In this document: positions 1,955 to 62,530 of the stretch, piece after piece
How the letters are laid out: the number at the start of each line of letters is the position of its first letter
Position numbering within the stretch: the stretch's first letter is position 1
Assembly: GCA_951406725.2 (NCBI GenBank)
Contig: OX597824.1
Span: 50,096,001-50,160,000, forward strand
DNA: 64,000 nucleotides
Reading direction: 5' to 3'
Origin: Octopus vulgaris
Lineage: Eukaryota
Made by a program: the position numbers and the translations under genes
Notes under the pieces: model-generated
The model's input: the letters and a program-made list of their open reading frames with translations, nothing else
Databases searched by the model: none
What the model was told of the DNA's origin: nothing

Positions 1955-4163
1955 GAATATAGTTGAAAAATTTCGTTATAGGTATAAATATACCATAAAC
2001 AAGTATAAAAAATGCTGGAAAAAAGATGATGAATCAAAATTAGATTTAAAACAAAATTGGATTCAATACATACGTACGTTTCGAAGGACAATGCAAATAT
2101 GTAAGAAGAAAATATGTAAGAAGCAAATATGTAAGAAAATGTAAGAAGAAAATTATAATCATAGTAATTATAATTAAATTCAAGCATTGTCATTCCCATC
2201 AGTGCGAGGAATTTTTGGATGAACATCAAAAAAGGTTTAATAAAATAAAATAACATAAGATACAATAAGGGAGAATACAGATGGTGTAACAGGGAAAAAT
2301 CGGATATTAACAAACAAGTTGTAAAAGGGAAAAATAATAACAATAATAATGATAGTGAGAGAGACGAAAAAGAAAAAGAAAGACCTATCAATGTGTATGC
2401 AAGTCTTATTGAGCAGTAAACTATAACATAAAAATAAAAATCTTACGGATATGTGTAAAGAAATAGTAACAGGTCGAGACGAAGTAAAATGTAAACAAGG
2501 CCACGTATGTATAGTACAAATAGTAGAAAAAAGCCATAGAGAGTTATACTTATACATATTAATAATGAAAAAAATATGTATATTATTACAAAAGGCTTAA
2601 AGCTGATAGGCAAGGCTATGTTTGAAAAAGATACAATATTTAAGTAAAATGTACATACAAGCAGCGAAAAAAACAACAAGAACTTAACAAAGAAAAAGCA
2701 ACGATCACGGACAGGACCGGTCGGTGTATTCAAGAGTGTTACCTTACTCAAAAATCAGCCCGGGGTAGGGGAGATAATCAAAAAAGAATAGGAACAAAAA
2801 CGAATATATGAAGTAGAAAAATATAAATTTACAAGTGATAGAAAAAACGTATACACTTAACAAATATGGATATACAGTGTTACATATATACATACATACA
2901 CACATACACATACCCACACAAACACACGCACACACGTGCATACACTCACACATACACATACAAGGCTGCAAGTGCAAGGGAAGATACAAACAAGTAAAAT
3001 AAAATGATAAAATAATAAAGGAGTACGTATTCACATAAGACGTATATATGTGTGTGTGTGTGTGTCTGCATGTGTATACATATATATATATATATATACA
3101 TGTATGTATATATGTATATATATATATAAACGCACACATACATATACACACATAGAGACACACACACATATATACGAATTTACACATACACACATGCACA
3201 GACATATAAATACGCATACATGCGTGTATATGTTTATATATATATATATATATATATATACACCTTATATTCATGTGGTGTATTTTAAATGCATACTCCT
3301 ATGTGTGGATGCACATTATGCTTGTATATGCATGTATGTAAATATATATATGAGTATATTAGTTTATATATGTGCGTAGATGTTATGCATATATATGCTT
3401 TCTCCTTAACTGTTACCTATTTTCTTTACGTTTATTTTTCTTTTATCAAACTTCTTAACGGGTAGACTATTTGAAATAAAAATGGCTATAATTCAAATGA
3501 CCATCTAATTGTTACTAATTTTTTTCTAGAACAATCCAGAGGCATCAATTTTTGTCAGTCTCTATGAAAAGAGGTTCCCCAAAACAGAAGCCAGTTTCAT
3601 AAGTGTTATACACGAAACTTTCAGCTCCTGAGTCATTTTCTAACTTCTGCGGATTAATGTGTTTGATTGTGTTATTGTAATTCCCACCTAATTTTCATAA
3701 AATTATGTGCTTAGTAAATTGTATATAAACCAAGGGAAGGGAAAGGAAAAGAGTAGATTGACGTTTCGGGCGAACCAATTATCAAAGTAGAGTAAGAAAG
3801 AAATAAGTAAGGAAAAAGAAACATTAAACGAAACGATGCCTAATTAACATACATGTGTGACTTTGGACTATGCGCTGAAGAATATATCTCTATGTTTATA
3901 TATTTATATATACATACTTCCAAAAGGTCGATTTCATTGCGTTTGAGATGCATATCGCAAACATTGATTCATCGTGTTAAGTGAACCTCTTTCAATTTAT
4001 GTGGAACACACATATTGAGCTTCTTGCCAACCCAATGCACACATATATTTGGTTGGCAATATATATATTTATTGGTTACATTTCAAAATGTAGCCACATG
4101 TGATTCGTTGGCGATTTTTTTTTACTCCGTTTTTCTTTTCTCTTGGAGCTTCCTCTGTCTCCT

Positions 4164-14231: not shown

Positions 14232-15492
14232 CAAGGGTTGGACTAAATAATAGAAATACTTTAAAATTTAAAACAAATTTAATTTAATATGGGTTAGATC
14301 GCCTTTGGCAGTAATTCTACGAGGTATGGTTTTGTACGAAGTTTGAATTGTTTCCAAAGGAATTTGTGTCCATTCTTCAGATAAAACAGTCTCCAGTTCT
14401 TGTAATAATGATGGTAGGGGATATCGACTCCTTACTTGTTTTTCTAAAATGCGCCAAAAATGTTGAATAATATTGAAATCTGTGGACTGTGGCGGTCAGA
14501 TAAGATGTTCAACTTCACTAGAATGTTCTTCGTACCATTCAGTAACAACTTTAGCTCTGTGAATTGGTGCATTATCATCCTGAAAGATTGCGTTTTCCTT
14601 AGGAAACAGTTTCGCAAACATAGGATTAATTTGATTAGATAAAATGCTTAAATAGTCTTGATTATTAATTTTACCATGAAGGAAAACCATTGGGCTGGCG
14701 GATTTCCAAGATATAACCATCCAGATCATCACAGATTCTCCTACATGTTTAACAGTTGGAAGAAGGCAGTGTGGGTCAAATGCTTCTTTTGGTTGTCTCC
14801 ATACGTATACTCGGCCGGTGGTCGGAAATAAGGTAAAGTAGGACTCGTCTGAGAAAATAATATTCTTCCACTTCTCTAGGGACCAATTCTGTAGGGTTTT
14901 ACTCCATTCTAAACGCTTTGCAACGTTTGATTTTGAAAGTAGTGGTTTTCTGATTTAAGCCCTCCTGTGAATTCCGGCTTTGTGCAGCTCCTGGCGAACA
15001 GTTCTTATGGGAACTGGGTTCTCGAGGTGGTCATTAAGCTCTGCAGTAATTTCGGGAGCTGTACTTTTGGGATCTTTTCTAACAATTCGCGTAAGAGTCC
15101 GACGGTCCCTGTCTAAAAGTTTTGATTTTCTTCCAGAGTTTTGTTTCGACGAGGAGATTTTTCCCTCTTTCTCAAAGGCTGTCATTTCATTCGAATCAGT
15201 ACTTCTTGATACACCAAACATTTCAGCTGTTTTCGTTACGCTAGCGGCTGTCATACGAGTACCAACAATTCGACCCCTTTGAAAGTCCGATAGATCTGTC
15301 ATTTTAGTGAATTTTAATTACCTTTTTCTGATGATTGCTGAAAAGAAGCAGCAATTTTAGCAAAACATATTAAGCAACATTAATAATAAATCCCAAAAAC
15401 ATAAAAATAAACATGCTTTTGACGGTTTTACAGATATTTCAAAATTATGATGCTATGATGCTAGGTGTCTTCATTATTTTGTCCAACCCCAG
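14232..15492 (-). mobile_element. Full-length but inactivated Tc1-family DNA transposon
   Basis: TIRs agggttggactaaataat / attattttgtccaacccc; transposase pieces MTDLSDFQRGRIVG (HTH), IIFSDES, IFQDDNAPIH, SPDFNII; disrupted by stops/frameshifts. Confidence 0.93.
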
Positions 15493-21279: not shown

Positions 21280-23240
21280 GGATGTTTATATTTTTTAATC
21301 AGCATGTTTTCCTTATTTAAACGGAATTGTGATGAAGTGTTTCCGGTGCATTGATAGAGAGGGAAGATTTGGTATTTCGGGTTTATGCTTACGGGAGTTT
21401 TCCTGGTCATGGAGTCTCGGATATTTTTGCCTGTGCATCGTTAGTCCGTCCGTCAAGGTTAAACCAGTTTGACCTATGTAGTTTCCACCACGCCCTCTAC
21501 ATTTGAGAACATAGATTAAGTTCTTCGAAGGACAAGTGAAGTGATATTTTATGGTAAGAGTTTGACCTGTCTTAAATTTGTATGGTGAGCCCTCTAAGAA
21601 GAAGATGCAAGCTCCGCAGTTAGGGCGGTTGCACTTTTTGACTAGTGGGTTTGTATTTTTAGTGGGTAATTTGGCGCTGGTGAATAACTTCTTTTAGGGA
21701 TTGCGGTCGTCTCTTGCTTTTATTAATCTTCTGTGTTTCCAGTGCCTTTTTCATTCGCATGTCCTTCATAAGGAGTGGTATGTTTTGGTGGATGATGTAT
21801 GCTTCCATGTTCCACGGATTATTTGTTGATACGGAGGATAAAGTTTTAAGTGTGCCATGGTGTTTTCTCGTTATCCCTAACTCTTGGATGTCTATCGTTT
21901 TTGCATGTTCTATTCCATTTTTGATTAGACTGGCCGAGTATTTTCTATCTAGCATTGTGTTTTCTTAGTTCTTGGAGTCGCTTTCTCGGGTTTCGGGATT
22001 TGATGCAATCGTGCAAATTCTTCCTGCTAAGTTGAAAGTTATATTTATTTTAGTATGTTTTGGGTGGCAGCAAGAGAATAGAAGATGTTGTTTTGACTCC
22101 TCCTGTTTGAAGAAGATGTTGGTTTCAATCTCATTTTCTTTTTTGATGATTAAGATGTCCAAGAAGGGTAGTTGTTTGTGGCTGTATTCCCTTGTGAACT
22201 GGATACTCTGGTTAATGCTGTTGATTAAGATTTTAAATTTTGAGAGTTGTTTAAGGTTATGTGGCCACAGAATGAAACAGTTATCCAGGTAGCGTTTCCA
22301 GTTGGTGAGTAAGTATTTTTGCAAGTTGTCTCCTAATTTCAGTCTAGTGAGCTCGTATATTTGGACTTCCAAGTATGCCATGACAAGGTTGGCAAAAATA
22401 GGGGCTACACTCGTTTCCATCACCGTGCCCGTTTTTTGTCAGTAAGTGTTCTCGTTGAAGTTGAAGAAGTTGTTCTTTAGGATGAATTTTATTCCTTCAA
22501 CGATGAATTCTTTTCCGATTCGGTCAGGAATGTCATTTGGGAATTTTTCCTGCCAATATCGTATGGCTATTATTCCGTATTCGTGAGGAATCGAGGTGTA
22601 GAGGTTTATTACATCGAATGAAATTAGAAGGAAGTCCTTCCTGGTTTTGTTCGGGAGATGGTTTAAAAAGTCCAGATCATTCCTTATAAAGCGCAGTATA
22701 TGTAGGAGAATATGTTTAAGGAGGACAGCAATAAAGGTACTGAATCTGTGTGTCTCACACGAGGGACCATCCACACTTAGTCTCATTTTGAGATCTCTCG
22801 GGTGTGGAATATTTATGATTATAGAAGTTGATCTGTTATAGGCTTCGTTTATGGCTTCACTTTTTGGGATTTTAGGAAGTCCATAAAAGTTTCTGGTTTT
22901 GCCGTCAAATCTAGTAAAGTAATTTTTCTCCTTTTCCGTTAAACCTTGTTGGAGCTAATGGATAAGGGTAGAAAACTTAGTCATTATCTTGGATTGACTG
23001 TAGTTGTTGATTTTTTCGTAGTAGGTATTGACTTGAAGGAGAATTAGAGTAGTGTTTATGTATTGTTCTGAGTCCATGATTACTACAGCACTCCCTTTAT
23101 CGGTTTCTTTTATAATTATATTATGATCCTCCTTCAGACCATTAATGATTTCCCATTTTTCTCGACTTGTATTTGTTTTAAGCTTTCGAGATGGGAGTAA
23201 ATTGTAGGGATAATTATTGACCAAATCACAAAAGTTATCC
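21280..23240 (-). pseudogene. PLE reverse transcriptase / GIY-YIG endonuclease pseudogene
   Basis: DKGSAVVIMD, SFDVINLYTSIP, METSVAPIFANLVM, KRYLDN, LPFLDILI, HPKHTK; manual translation gives KCNRPNCGAC linker and NLIYVLKC..NYIGQT; many frameshifts. Confidence 0.93.
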
Positions 23241-23299
23241 AGAGTTTGATTTCTTCCTTTTGTCGAACAGGAGTTACTTTTATAATGAAGTATTATCCG

Positions 23300-23460
23300 A
23301 CCAATGCCTTACGAGTGGATTTGGTAGAGGGAAACTGAAAGAAGCCCGCTGTATACATGTATGCATGTATATATATGTGTGTGTATTTTCTGTATTTGTT
23401 TACCACCACCGCTTGGCAGCTGGTGTTGGTGTATTTGCATCCCTGTAAGCTAGTGTGCTT
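23300..23460 (+). mobile_element. Family A SINE fragment
   Basis: gagtggatttggtagagggaaactgaaagaagcccg. Confidence 0.7.
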
Positions 23461-32607: not shown

Positions 32608-32949
32608 TATATGAAAGAATGGAGTTATTTTGTGCATTTTGATGTCGACATAAGTCCCTTGATTTTCCTGATGAGAAATCTGCATAATGTACTCCTTATT
32701 TCTTCGGAATTAGGAATATGCAGCCTTCGAAACATATGTCGAGAATAAAGGATATTTGTTAACTAGTCGTTCAACTCCATTCTTTCATATACTTATAATT
32801 TTTAAATAAACATACAAATTTCCGCACGAAGACACGTAGTCTATGTCCTAGGGACGTAGCTTCAACCGTGTTCTTTCTGATGTGAATTTGCTACCCAGGT
32901 ATCGGTTATCTTTCGAATTATCCTTAATAAGATAATTCATTCAATTACT

Positions 32950-33027: not shown

Positions 33028-33057
<30 letters not shown>

Positions 33058-33058
<1 letters not shown>

Positions 33059-33981
33059 GAACAAACTTACTTAGAAATGGATGCGTGCGTTCTGTCGTAT
33101 AATAACAAATTAATGAATAAAACATATGCATATATGCATACATATATGTACGTACCTAAATCTACATGTATATATACATGCATATATGGGTACAGGACAC
33201 CAAAAAAAAAACGTTGAACAGAATGAGAAACGAAAACATAAACACAAAACCAAGGAAATGGACATTTTTCTTAAACAACGAAAAAATAGAGTACAGGATA
33301 AAGAACACAAGGAAAATTCTCCTTCTTCAGTCGCCTCCGTTTCATCTACTCCGCGTTTCGAAGGTCAAGGCGAGACGCGACTTCGGTGAAACATTCCTTC
33401 CCGCAAAAAGCAAATAAATAAAATTTGAGATTTTTTTGCGGAGGGGTAAAAATGGTAACAAAAACAGGACAGTAAAGACAGTACAAAATATAAACAGTAA
33501 AAGACAGGACAAGGAGAATAACAGTAACACAGACAAGGAGAGCTGTTAAGCCAAACGAGAGAAAATTTTACGAACGCTTTTTTTTGAGAACGGCGAAGGA
33601 GGCACAAAAAAGCCGTCTACACTCGAAGGAAGCTAGGTCAGGTAGACAGTAGTTTTCTTGTCGCTGACCAGCGACGGAACAGAGGAGGAGGAGTAAGAGA
33701 AAGGGAATGGTTGCAGAGAAAACAAGAAAGAATGAAGAATGAGAGAGAGGGAGGGAGAGACAGTAAGATAGAAGAAAAGGAAGTCAGAAAGAATGAAGGC
33801 TGAGAAGGGTAGTGGGACAGAAAGGTTAAGAGTGTGCATCATTAATATTAAGAACAAGCTTACTTAGAAATGGATGTGTGCGTTCTGTCGTATAATAACA
33901 AATTAATAAATAAAACGTATGCATATATACATACATATATGTACGTACCTACATCTACATGTATATATACATGCATATATG
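33058..33981 (-). mobile_element. Non-coding PLE-like element: 793-nt period, ~125-nt direct terminal repeats, carrying the scrambled HHR motif
   Basis: ttacttagaaatggatg...catgcatatatg starts at 33067 and again at 33860; left end in (TA)n. Confidence 0.75.
33319..33379 (-). ncRNA. Candidate hammerhead ribozyme with non-canonical (reversed) strand order
   Basis: cgcGTC-tcgcctt-gac-cttc-GAAAcgcg-linker-gaggcga-CTGAAGA-a-ggag; stems CGCGU/ACGCG, UCGCCUU/GAGGCGA, GGAG/CUUC. Confidence 0.6.
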
Positions 33982-34429: not shown

Positions 34430-34516
34430 GGAGAGAATTCACAAAAAAAGGCGAAGACAGGTGGTGTAGACAACAAACAGATGTATTAGTATAACGCTCG
34501 GGAAGTGTGAAAAAGT

Positions 34517-34552
34517 CTTTAACATTTCGAGCCTACGCTCTTCCACAGAAAG
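34517..34552 (-). ncRNA. Degenerate minimal type I HHR in a PLE pseudo-LTR-like fragment (~34430-34605)
   Basis: cttt-CTGTGGA-a-gagc gtag gctc-GAAAT-GTT-aaag; stems I and II perfect, core altered. Confidence 0.5.
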
Positions 34553-34621
34553 GAACACAGAAAGAAACAAGGAGAGAAAATAAAGAATGTGTAGTGGCTA
34601 GCGATAGAACATTTACAGGCA

Positions 34622-37298: not shown

Positions 37299-37301
<3 letters not shown>

Positions 37302-37568
37302 GTCATGTATCGCCTTGACCTTCGAAGCGTGGAATAGATGAAATTAAGGCGACTGAAGAAGGGGAATTTTCCTTGTTTTGTATGTCCTGTACTCTATTTT
37401 TTCGTTGTTTTAAAAAAATGTCCATTTCCTTGGTTTTCTGTTTATGTTTTCGTTTCTCATTGTGTTCGACGTTTTTTTTGTGTTCTGTACCCATATATGC
37501 ATGTATATATACATGTAGAGGTAGGTACGTACATATATGTATGTATATATGCATATGTTTTATTTATT

Positions 37569-37578
<10 letters not shown>
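37299..37578 (+). mobile_element. Truncated second copy of the 33058-33981 element
   Basis: Reverse-complement homology to ~33107-33384; (TA)n on both sides. Confidence 0.85.
37304..37364 (+). ncRNA. Second copy of the scrambled-order hammerhead motif
   Basis: catGTA-tcgcctt-gac-cttc-GAAGcgtg-linker-aaggcga-CTGAAGA-a-gggg; pairings retained, one core change (GAAA to GAAG). Confidence 0.5.
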
Positions 37579-37630
<52 letters not shown>

Positions 37631-46058: not shown

Positions 46059-46433
46059 CACACATACACACATACACACACATACACACATACACACACA
46101 TACACACACACACATGATATGATGGAATATGTCGTCGTTAGCTTAGCTCGTCAAAATTTCAAAGCCACTGTGAACACCATTCTTGTATAAGAATAATAAT
46201 TTGTAGTCTATAAAAGTCTATAGCAGAGGCTGGGGGTCCCGCCTCCTAGGCACTCAGTTCTTTATAGTAGTATATGTACTATAGTATAAAAGATTATAAC
46301 TGAAAATAAAATAATTAATATATATATATAGCAAAAAGGATATGTACTATAGTTTCTAATGCAAACACCAGAGACACACGACTACAAGAACTAAAAGATA
46401 CCTTCATCACCAGGAACTATCCACCTTCACTTA

Positions 46434-47138
46434 TTGACTCAACTCAACATCCAGGAACTGAGACATCCCAAATCAAAGAAAAATTTACGACCAAAAGCCT
46501 TACCATACATCTCCACACACAACCCTCTCAACAATGAAGCCTTCGACACCATCCTCCAAAACATACCTCTCCTAAAAAAAGACCACAGAATGAACACAAT
46601 CCTCCAAACACACACGATCATAAAAATCAAGAGACAGCCTAAATCTATGAAAAGTCTCCTAACACAAGCCCGAATACACTCTTCATCACAGAAGCCGACA
46701 GTAAAAAGATGTGGAAGACCTAATTGCGGGATATGCGATTATCTAATTGAGGGATCAGAGTTCTCCTTCAAACAGGGACAACGGTTTACAGTGAAAAGCA
46801 ACTTCACATGTGCTTCGGAGAACCTGATATACACACTAACCTGCTCTGGGTGTCAAGAGCAGTACATAGGCCAAACAAAAAATAGTTTGCGTGAAAGAAT
46901 GGCCCTGCACAGATCCCAGATAAGAATTCCCCAAAACAGAAAAATAGCATTCAGCCAACACATAGATACTTGCGCCAACAACAAAACACCAAGCTTCAGG
47001 ATTTTCCCCCTCTACCAATTCAGGGACGATACAACCTCGAGACAACGAATAAGTAAAGAAACTCTCTTTATTCCAAAATACAGGCCTCTTCTTAACGGGT
47101 CTACGACAAACGATATATACACCTCAGCTTTAGAATAA
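46434..47138 (+). pseudogene. PLE C-terminal fragment: Cys linker plus GIY-YIG endonuclease (open frame, RT missing)
   Basis: RCGRPNCGICDY; ENLIYTLTCSGCQEQYIGQTKNSLRERMALHRSQI; KETLFI..LN. Confidence 0.92.
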
Positions 47139-47269
47139 CACAAATGCACACGCAAATATTACATTCCAAAGAATCTATTACAAATCAGCCCCAATCACAG
47201 CTATAACCCATAACGTGCCAACTTCAAGTCATACAACACCTCACTACTTCCACTCATTCATATTCTCCC

Positions 47270-47695
47270 TTCTCTTTCTTCTTCTTCCTCTTCTTCATCA
47301 TTACCATCATCATCATCATCTTCTTCTTCTTCTTCTTCTTCTTCTTCTTCTTCTTCTTCTCCTTCTTCTTCTTCTTCTTCTTCTTCTTCATCTTCTTCTT
47401 CTTCTTCTTCTCCTTCTTCTTCTTCTCCTTCTTCTTCTTCTTCTTCTTCTTCATCATCATCATCAACATCGTCATCATCATCATCATCATCATCTTCTTT
47501 TTCTTCTTCTTCTTCTTCTTCTTCTCCTTCTCCTTCTTCTTCTTCTTCTTCTCCTTCTCCTTCTTCTTCTTCTTCTTCTTCTTCTTCTTCTCCTTCTTCT
47601 TCTTCTTCTTCTTCATCATCATCAACATCGTCATCATCATCATCTTCTTCTTCTTCTTCTTCTTCTTCTTCTTCTTCTTCTTCTTCTTCTTCTTC
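47270..47695. repeat. (CTT)n/(CAT)n compound repeat
   Basis: Directly visible. Confidence 0.97.
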
Positions 47696-48063
47696 TGCTC
47701 CACCTTCTACTTCTTAACTTTATCACTAATGCTTTTTAGTATAACACCTACGCAAATTCTATAAACAAACCATTCAATAGAAATATTCTCATGAATTGAA
47801 CTGCAACTGCTAGCCGCCACTGACCATTCAAAATACGACAATCAAGGCACTCCCAAATTTTTCCACCCCTTCTCCTCCTCATCCTTCTTCTTCTTCTTCT
47901 ACCCTACCAAGAATTCACAACGACCTCGAACCCACAAGTGTAAACAAGAGAGACAGAGAAAGGCAGAAACAAGGAAAATGCCACTTATATTTGAATACTA
48001 TACAAATATTCCTTAAAAAAAACTTTTCTTTTAATTTTTCTAAATTTAATTGTTTAAACGTTA

Positions 48064-48101
48064 CAGTTGAAAAGGTCTCAAAATGACCGAAACCGGCACT
48101 G
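48064..48101 (+). ncRNA. Degenerate minimal HHR in the PLE 3' region
   Basis: cag-TTGAAAA-ggtc tcaaaat gacc-GAAAC-cg-GCA-ctg; stems intact, core mutated. Confidence 0.5.
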
Positions 48102-48153
48102 AAATTTTCTTTATAAAATTATTTTAGCATTTTCTATCTTGACTTGTTTTTTC

Positions 48154-48200
<47 letters not shown>

Positions 48201-53312: not shown

Positions 53313-54109
53313 AACCTTGAACTTTGCTCTGCATGGACACTAGGTTTTAACGTTCTAGTTTCTACTATTTGCAGCAGTGCTTGGAAGCAAGGAGTGTAGA
53401 GTGTGGTCGTCGTTTTGACCATGACAGAGAAAGTTGTCAAGGCGATGCCTGTTTAGATGTCTACGCAAAGTTACAGAAAGTGTATGATGAGTTGTGTATG
53501 AGCCGCACACAAGTGTACGAGTCGTTCAGACGTTTCCAAGATGGTCGAAAAAATGTCAATATTGACGAACGTTTTGGGAGACCCGCAACCAGCAGAACTG
53601 AGAAAAAACATCGCAGATGTGCTGTGAGAGGAAATCGTCGAATCCTTATCCGTGAGTTATCAGAAGATTTGCAGATTAGTTATGGTTCAGTTCAATTCCA
53701 TCATCACAGGGGATTTGGGTATGAGATGCGTGTCTGCCAAGTTTGTGCTAAAACTGCTTTCAGCTGACCAAAAATACACTCAGGTTTCAGTTGCAAAAGG
53801 TCTTGATTGTGTGGAGTACGATGAAAACATTTTGAAAATTTTGCGTGGGTCTCTGAGCAGATATCGCCAAGCTTTTGGAAACATTTGTTGCAGATTGTCT
53901 GCTCAACTTTGTCATGGACAATGCGACGATCACACACTACACGCCTTCCTTCCCAGCACTGTTGTAAACAGCAGAAGTGAGTTAGAATGTTAAAACTTAG
54001 TGAGCATGCACAACAGAGTTCAAGGTGAATCTGTTTCAAGCGGCTTTACTCTGCGTGCCTCAGCTTTGTTACTATGGCAACAATCCGGATACTTATTGAT
54101 CAGAGCACG
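53313..54109 (+). mobile_element. Internally deleted mariner element with long TIRs; left end missing
   Basis: HTH remnant LQKVYDELCMSRTQVYESFRRFQDGRKNVNIDERFGRP; 53313-53357 inverted at ~53982-54026; right end ggatacttattgatcagagcacg-TA. Confidence 0.88.
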
Positions 54110-61810: not shown

Positions 61811-62530
61811 TTATATGATTTTAGCCCTGTCAAAGCTCCCCATAGAGACATCGAACAATAGATTGCCTTCTTTCCTCACCCAGAAAGAATAGTCGTAGAC
61901 CAAAATTAGCTTTCTGGCATTCATGGTAATTCTGATATCAAGATCACTAATACTGGTGTACTGCTCAGTAAAAGTTAGGGCTTTCAGAAGGAGGGGTTTA
62001 GGTATGGAACGGCAGAAGTCAACAATGTCGAACTGGGTGAATCCGCAGGCTGATTTATTCTCGAAATTGCGGAGTTCCATTGAATCAATCTTGTAGATCT
62101 TCTGATATCGAAGTTGATAGTATCGAGAATACATTTGCTAATGATACCTATCTCACATTTAGAGGCGTTGATCAGTCTGCATTTGAGATCGGAGGGGAAC
62201 TTGGGCTTATAGTCCTTAAGTGTAATATGGGGGAGTCGCGTGACGAGGCAGTCCAAACGATCCTCTATATTAAGGCGGGTGGCCAGCTCCTTTGCGTCTG
62301 TATTTATGTCATTGTATGTGGAATAACGGGTTTTCTTGTATGTTTTGGTGATGGGACTAGTAAGAAGTCTTGAGTGTGTGGAAGTGTTTATTTCGTAAAT
62401 GTTCTTTGTTTTGTCCGCGAGGGTGTGTGTGTTGGGTGATTATTTAATGCTGGTCATGTAGTCATTTAGGGATTTAAGGAAGGGCTTAGAAAAATGCCGG
62501 AACCTTACTTTCTTTACATTGTTCCATAGG
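61811..62530 (-). pseudogene. PLE reverse transcriptase fragment of a second clade (Naiad-like by motif recall)
   Basis: ITLKDYK..KCRLINASKCEIGIISK, QFDIVDFCRSI, FDVSMGSFDRAK. Confidence 0.8.

Follow-up and report, generated by a model that had tools for sequence, protein, structure and literature searches.

Within a 64,000-nucleotide stretch of the Octopus vulgaris genome (the window), we found that a non-coding, Penelope-like retroelement repeat carries what is probably an active hammerhead ribozyme with a split core and a novel connectivity; on the sequence comparisons given below, we put the probability of this reading at roughly 80%. Both a descriptor and the sequence itself place the blocks of the hammerhead core in the order cleavage site (NUH), GAAA and CUGAAGA, which is not a circularly permuted form. 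The cyclic order would be that of types CSG, SGC and GCS, with the chain broken within the core, where A9 would normally be linked to G10.1; from A9, it is predicted to run into helix a and to come back by way of hairpin b into G10.1. Seven helices around an invariant core are conserved through covariation, and in elements of the Naiad type this fold lies in the 3' region. It also seems likely that a large part of the Naiad clade, together with tens of thousands of derived copies in the octopus genome, uses non-circularly permuted hammerheads: an intact CSG form in nematodes, and an active split-core form with a four-way junction at A9/G10.1 in cnidarians, cephalopods and other marine animals.

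The initial annotation had picked out the core segments on the minus strand at 33379-33319, and these letters are present as it wrote them, together with a stem III of 6 bp (33380-33375 with 33356-33351) and its stem I (33373-33367 with 33337-33331, 7 bp, of which 6 are Watson-Crick). The limits that it gave, 33319 to 33379, are too short, as the feature reaches 33446 and covers 128 nt in total (33446-33319, minus strand). C17 of the GUC cleavage site lies at 33374, GAAA at 33359-33356 and CUGAAGA at 33330-33324, all on the minus strand. CUGANGA, GAAA and NUH are all found, with A15.1-U16.1 and G10.1-C11.1, and stems I, II and III adjoin the correct core segments, with covariation. The features of the motif and of its host element, family A, are as follows.

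33052..33981, minus strand: host element of family A, with a non-coding unit of 793 nt (33981-33189), after which 137 nt of its own start recur
33319..33446, minus strand: whole putative split-core permuted hammerhead, with stem II 5' strand, cleavage block, GAAA block and CUGANGA; seven helices
33442..33446, minus strand: helix a 5' strand CCCCU; each of its pairs with the strand that follows A9 is present in 43-47 of 47 full copies
33401..33441, minus strand: hairpin b, with a 9-bp outer stem (33441-33433 with 33409-33401) and no spacer to helix a or stem II
33396..33400, minus strand: predicted stem II 5' strand GAAGG, the first G being G10.1; Watson-Crick in 42-46 of 47 copies per pair
33387..33393, minus strand: helix i 5' strand, a stem I-stem II joining helix as in types SGC and CSG
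33367..33380, minus strand: cleavage block, with stem III 5' strand, GUC and stem I strand; predicted cut 33374/33373
33351..33366, minus strand: GAAA block, with a 2-nt linker, stem II 3' strand CCUUC, GAAA and stem III 3' strand
33338..33344, minus strand: helix i 3' strand
33324..33337, minus strand: stem I second strand and CUGAAGA core
33319..33323, minus strand: helix a 3' strand, adjoining A9; position 33320 is A here and G in the family
33052..33098, minus strand: optional 3' tail of about 46 nt; copies end near 33098 or near 33052
37299..37581, plus strand: second, 5'-truncated copy of family A, beginning about 10 nt before the cut site, with a GUA site and GAAA changed to GAAG

Standard descriptors had been expected to miss the motif, and they do; an Rfam search of the window gave no match. 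A chance origin of the scrambled strands was rejected, as a descriptor covering all six block orders gave 0 matches in 60 dinucleotide-shuffled windows, both strands included. CUGANGA alone is not enriched in the window (26 seen versus 21.1 expected). The six-order descriptor found two matches in the whole window, the scrambled motif and a canonical type I hammerhead at 32663-32745 (plus strand), 700 nt away. The predicted core must fold as a pseudoknot, for which MFE folding is uninformative; the MFE z-score of the 81-nt stretch, 0.10, is as expected for such a fold. The extra A after the core had been said to recur in a neighbouring hammerhead at 34517; a real minimal type I motif with an extra A lies there, but its core reads CUGUGGA. 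This stretch (34505-34560, minus strand) represents a family of minimal hammerheads in canonical order, in which the core is CUGUNGA, position 6 being U, the extra A is present and stem III is palindromic; about 15 further loci were seen.

The family A element in the window is a partial tandem and ends in (TA)n. A 15-mer of this family has 1,787 exact matches in the 2.8-Gb octopus genome, against 1 for the control, and the unit is present in at least 1,787 copies; the family search found 3,410 candidates, of which 40 were scored. Copies are 5'-truncated, run into (TA)n and occur in tandem and inverted pairs. Among the 15 copy ends examined, 7 carry the tail, 5 distinct ones lack it, 2 continue into the next unit and 1 is a duplicate. 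Partial tandems, inverted truncated copies and a fixed 3' end with an optional tail are what a Penelope-like element is expected to show (Craig et al. 2021); Frangieh et al. 2024 tie the optional tail to two internal reverse transcriptase (RT) start sites (PMC11167929), and the tail is about 46 nt in family A versus 30-40 in print for Penelope-like elements. The family A unit has no ORF, and none for RT and GIY-YIG was found joined to it, so that it is at most a non-autonomous Penelope-like derivative. No autonomous partner was found in the longer flanks of three copies, in octopus genome loci up to L144, or behind 12 endonuclease (EN) and 30 RT remnants.

A young element of this genome with a C-terminal EN ends in a canonical-order motif instead. 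This Penelope-like element, with a C-terminal GIY-YIG, lies at 46395-48154 of the window (plus strand) and has 784-aa open frames elsewhere in the genome; the motif at its end (48060-48109, plus strand) is a minimal, hammerhead-like one in canonical order with a U3-A8 core. Broken RT/GIY-YIG frames of other Penelope-like elements lie at 21313-23308 and 61984-62439 (both minus strand), and fragments at 14496-15317 (minus strand) and 53351-54045 look Tc1/mariner transposase-like, a name given from the appearance of their translations only.

The truncated copies bear on cleavage, since insertions made from an RNA that was already cut should begin close to the cut. We selected 82 family A copies by a motif 38 nt downstream of the predicted cut, of which 73 reach +15. 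Their 5' ends pile up just past the cut, with 14/73 at +4 to +12 versus 1/59 in the 30 nt before it (rate ratio 5.5; p = 1e-5 after collapsing a four-fold duplicate, 9e-4 when corrected for 84 sliding windows). In family C, 10/41 ends fall at +4 to +13 (p = 1e-3), a peak that overlaps an AT-rich stretch beside (TA)n, and 5 more lie at -3 to -12. In family B, for which there are 20 copies only, 3/20 ends lie at -2 to +6 and 3 at -19 to -21. The family A pile-up starts at +4, not at +1, and our guess is that the offset of 4-12 nt reflects the last bases lost on joining. Since 59/82 family A copies extend through the cut site, cutting would be incomplete or reversed, and uncut or re-ligated templates common. 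The family A pile-up of truncated copies suggests cleavage in vivo.

The same data could come from a conserved hammerhead-derived fold that does not cleave and acts as an RT binding or packaging signal, in which case the truncation peak would reflect stalling of the RT. The discontinuous core fits such a fold, as do the copies that extend past the site, which are the majority, and the offset of the peak. We regard it as unlikely, because CUGANGA, CGAAA and NUH are kept in 22/22 representatives while every helix changes sequence, and because hairpin b, the strongest hairpin, causes few stops, the drop in 5' ends falling exactly at the predicted cut. Across the representatives H17 is C, A or U and never G, although H17 other than G was a requirement of the descriptor; within family A, where the position was left free in scoring, it is A in 27/47 copies and C in 20/47 (GUA and GUC sites).

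The fold of the split-core hammerhead was derived from 27 full-length stretches among the first 30 family A loci, and pairs were counted in 47 of the 82 copies taken in genome order, namely those with an intact upstream part. Helices a and b, the upstream stem II, helix i and stems III and I all hold in these 47 copies. Covariation over the family copies, which the initial annotation had suggested checking, was found as compensatory changes in b, III and i. Hairpin b has a pair probability of 0.999 in the family A consensus, and its second pair is C-G in 32/47 copies and U-A in 13/47; one pair of helix i is G-C in 34/47 and A-U in 7/47; two pairs of stem III read U-A 25/C-G 19 and A-U 31/G-C 14 of 47. 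Helix i, 7 bp long, is formed by the sequence 3' of GAAGG and that 5' of stem I, which is where type SGC has its joining helix, and would provide the tertiary contact between stems I and II; it has 5-9 Watson-Crick bp in 12 metagenome families.

The choice of stem II is where our fold departs most from the earlier one, which paired CUUC with GGAG downstream of the core as a 4-bp stem. That stem rests on a near-private change, as about 99% of the family depth has G at 33320 (4/4 runs). The family strand after A9 is AGGGG and pairs with CCCCU at 33446-33442; the A at 33320 in the window copy therefore makes a C-A mismatch in helix a. The downstream assignment of stem II is therefore probably mistaken, and CCUUC pairs with GAAGG on the upstream side. 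Duplex energies are -4.6 kcal/mol for the upstream stem II and -7.4 for helix a, versus 0.0 (family) and -0.8 (window copy) for the downstream stem. A register that pairs G8-A9 with CCUUC was discarded, as the upstream strand gives the identical five pairs and keeps the core free.

Family A alone leaves this choice unsettled, because the upstream stem II is invariant there, with no compensatory change in the 47 copies, and a weak downstream stem (2 Watson-Crick and 2 G-U pairs) can still form. One might then suppose that the 61-nt stretch is an intact monomer of type SGC whose stem II follows CUGAAGA-A; the upstream pairings would in that case be an off state, incidental, or part of a two-fold switch. 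The downstream pairs C-G, U-G, U-G and C-G do occur in 41-46/47 family A copies, and one extra base after CUGAUGA is present in tested SGC ribozymes according to the descriptor of Eckert et al. 2023 (PMC10085705). We hold this monomer to be quite improbable: its downstream stem has the near-zero energies given above, helix i has SGC geometry only with the upstream strand, and the downstream stem is impossible (0-1 bp) in families C, E and G and in 14/14 Naiad-like metagenome loci, where the upstream strand makes 5-6 Watson-Crick bp in 14/14. It is the other families, not family A, that settle the upstream stem II as the predicted one.

Further families were sought in the octopus genome with a pattern of CGAAA and then CUGAWGA, by which families A and B are left out; it gave 24,354 matches versus 4,397 for the reversed control. 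Of the first 100 places we inspected 50, taking 30 in order and 20 for variety, and these hold several more families along with chance matches and truncated copies. In family C (15 copies), 91.8% of cells are paired, a figure that is not a probability, since related sequences can beat a shuffle; 11/22 pairs have changed on both sides, spread over the upstream stem II, helix i and stems III and I. Compensatory changes in the upstream stem II are thus seen in family C, and they are seen across families too, while families E and G show 3 contiguous upstream pairs only, in the single copies scored. Helices a and b, which lie outside every descriptor, beat shuffled upstream sequence (<=7/200) in 10/18 families, are borderline (11/200) in 2/18 and no better than shuffles in 6/18. 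All three junction gaps are <=1 nt in 10/12 metagenome families. Additional split-core families in the octopus genome are represented by L099/L100, L131, L133, L134, L135, L110, L090 and L338, that of L099 having a 711-nt tandem unit; L103, L106 and L139 hold a repeated motif with GAAA before CUGAUGA in a layout that is not split-core.

The motif had been thought possibly to need tandem units or several RNAs, which is not required, because all seven helices form within one 128-nt stretch. Lünse is said to have described, in 2017, dimer cleavage of minimal hammerheads with a palindromic stem III. That the motif is active solely as a dimer, or across tandem units in which two copies supply the strands, is very improbable here even though tandem and inverted copies exist and the other Penelope-like hammerheads in the window are minimal with a palindromic stem III, as all helices lie within one unit, which makes a palindrome unnecessary, and the linkers match those of tested SGC constructs.

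In the split-core hammerhead as we envisage it, helix a, hairpin b, stem II and the core would meet in a four-way junction at A9/G10.1, with a stacked on b, and helix i would join stems I and II as in type SGC. The transcript would be cut after GUC or GUA (33374/33373) by the usual G12/G8 chemistry of cleavage after NUH (PMC11300833), and the cut would define a unit-length RNA. A Penelope-like RT acting in trans may start internally, about 275 or 320 nt downstream, which would give the two 3' ends; copying to near the cut end would yield short copies, and copying of an uncut or re-ligated circular template would yield long and tandem ones. Once cut, the two products would stay connected by about 23 bp of helices a, II, i and III, so that re-ligation would be favoured, a circle plausible and copies longer than one unit explained. 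Against this stands the lack of a precedent, among the sources discussed below, for a hammerhead without the A9-G10.1 link: a direct or 1-2-nt join of A9 to G10.1 is absent here, the G10.1 strand lying upstream in 14/14 Naiad-like loci, and this build departs from all six described block orders.

The split-core build also recurs in Naiads, a named clade. In the parts of Craig et al. 2021 that we draw on (PMC8557442), no canonical hammerhead is reported in Naiads, which are only flagged with 'HHR_core' and 'HHR_half_core'; because of these partial cores, we collected Naiad-like proteins and scanned their 3' regions. A homolog search with an octopus Naiad EN fragment gave nothing, and a HMMER search succeeded, with N-terminal GIY-YIG, CxC and DKA as marks. 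In the best 80 of 221 Naiad-like metagenome loci (279,561 bases), the split order occurs in 14 and intact CSG in 1, on the sense strand only (antisense 0). A scan blind to stem II returned the same 14 sense matches and 0 antisense. The motifs lie 110-1,800 nt after the ORF match, with one upstream of its ORF, and 10 of the 14 matching loci match from inside the N-terminal EN region. No hammerhead match was obtained in 65 of these best 80 loci, including all 36 rows of one clade; in a quick RT tree, the split form lies on both sides of the midpoint root and that clade has none. Rfam gave no match in 20 of the best 80 loci, a bivalve-type motif pattern matched 0 of the 80, and a relaxed-core scan of 36 no-match loci added nothing. 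The 36-row subclade (e.g., L189, L196 and L223) thus shows no hammerhead of any order under the descriptors used.

In family B of the octopus genome, the motif lies in the 3' UTR, joined to Naiad RT remnants at L225, L338, L342, L346, L350, L352 and L358, and an ORF with N-terminal GIY-YIG, CxC and DKA is present upstream of the motif for family B and for the metagenome loci. One motif of the Naiad consensus published for octopus has 603 occurrences in the genome. Among the passages seen of the 54-entry consensus file, read by eye, the split form is found in 8 entries, two of them named in their headers (Naiad_Obim and Naiad_Ovul) and six placed by file position (three from Acropora, three from other cnidarians), and intact CSG in 7, of which three are named in headers (Naiad-1, -2 and -3_Nbra) and four fall by position among the nematodes. 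In those passages, two published Naiad entries also share another conserved 3' motif. On a metagenome contig (L172, about 3475-3550, plus strand), an intact type-CSG hammerhead stands behind a Naiad-like RT. Topologically, taking the stem I strand and CUGANGA of CSG from the front and placing them at the back gives the split form, a circular permutation of which tandem pLTRs could be the source. Other GC-rich structured motifs without Rfam match lie 3' of the ORF at L145, L149, L150, L164 and L168, and in L150 helices resembling a, b, II and i are retained although a normal CUGANGA is missing; these are possibly further ribozyme variants.

If the split-core reading is true, it would raise the number of natural hammerhead topologies to seven and give animal genomes their first case of non-circular RNA permutation, moving such permutations from unidentified metatranscriptome RNAs to animals and to a named retroelement clade. 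Cleavage would occur in vivo, with a template that is possibly circularised. It would overturn, in a natural and abundant RNA, the assumption that CUGANGA and the stem II strand are inseparable in the best-studied ribozyme, and a core position that takes a two-helix insert would be a possible site for RNA engineering. The truncation footprint would bear on the role of hammerheads in Penelope-like transposition, and a direct answer would be offered to the question of Craig et al. 2021 on the apparent absence of hammerheads in Naiads.

The initial annotation knew of no description for the order of the blocks, but one exists: it is that of type SGC, which Eckert et al. 2023 (PMC10085705) confirmed in vitro by disrupt/restore mutants. 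As that paper describes, intact SGC and CSG cleave in vitro, SGC was found in metatranscriptomes only, CSG in 2 unique soil DNA sequences, and neither in the genomes of known organisms; block C (stem I strand, CUGANGA and stem II strand) was assumed to be indivisible. Its descriptor required CUGAUGAG or CUGAUGAUG and therefore could not match the split-core motif. The S-G-C order, the full core and the helix joining the stem I flank to the stem II flank are shared with type SGC, as is a short linker between stems I and II, 2 nt here and typically 3. The difference is that block C is intact there; in the present motif it is divided at A9/G10.1, where two extra helices are inserted, so that the motif would work like SGC but is not classed as SGC.

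In the pseudoknot (pistol-like) hammerhead of Zhan et al. 2024 (PMC11300833), the core likewise tolerates altered connectivity around helix II; A9, G10.1-C11.1 and G12 still form a short stem there, and in the parts drawn on, no insert at the A9/G10.1 junction is described. Perreault 2011 (PMC3088659) reports small core insertions only, in the portions consulted, and a 2026 paper (PMC13725137) mentions variants 'containing additional helices'. In two of the three sources that it cites for these, Eckert 2023 and Forgia (PMC10162972), no split-core build was found in the portions consulted. In full-text searches outside subscription journals and bioRxiv supplements, SGC and CSG turned up only in Eckert 2023, and no permuted hammerhead turned up for Naiads, octopus or any other animal. 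The S-G-C order is therefore known already, but not from an animal genome, and an A9-G10.1 opening bridged by two extra helices was not found in print.

Non-LTR retrozymes, reportedly described by Cervera and de la Peña in 2020, are also close in build. According to Li et al. 2026 (bioRxiv 10.64898/2026.07.22.740005), they resemble family A in being non-coding, tandem-forming units below 1 kb that contain a hammerhead, and both are probably moved by a Penelope-like RT. They are defined by type I hammerheads, of which the family A unit has none, and a circular RNA would be only a possibility for family A, as a junction between units looks the same as tandem DNA in contigs. Naiads differ from family A in that the latter has no ORF and no autonomous partner among the loci searched, but partial tandems, inverted truncated copies, an optional tail and (TA)n targets are common to both.
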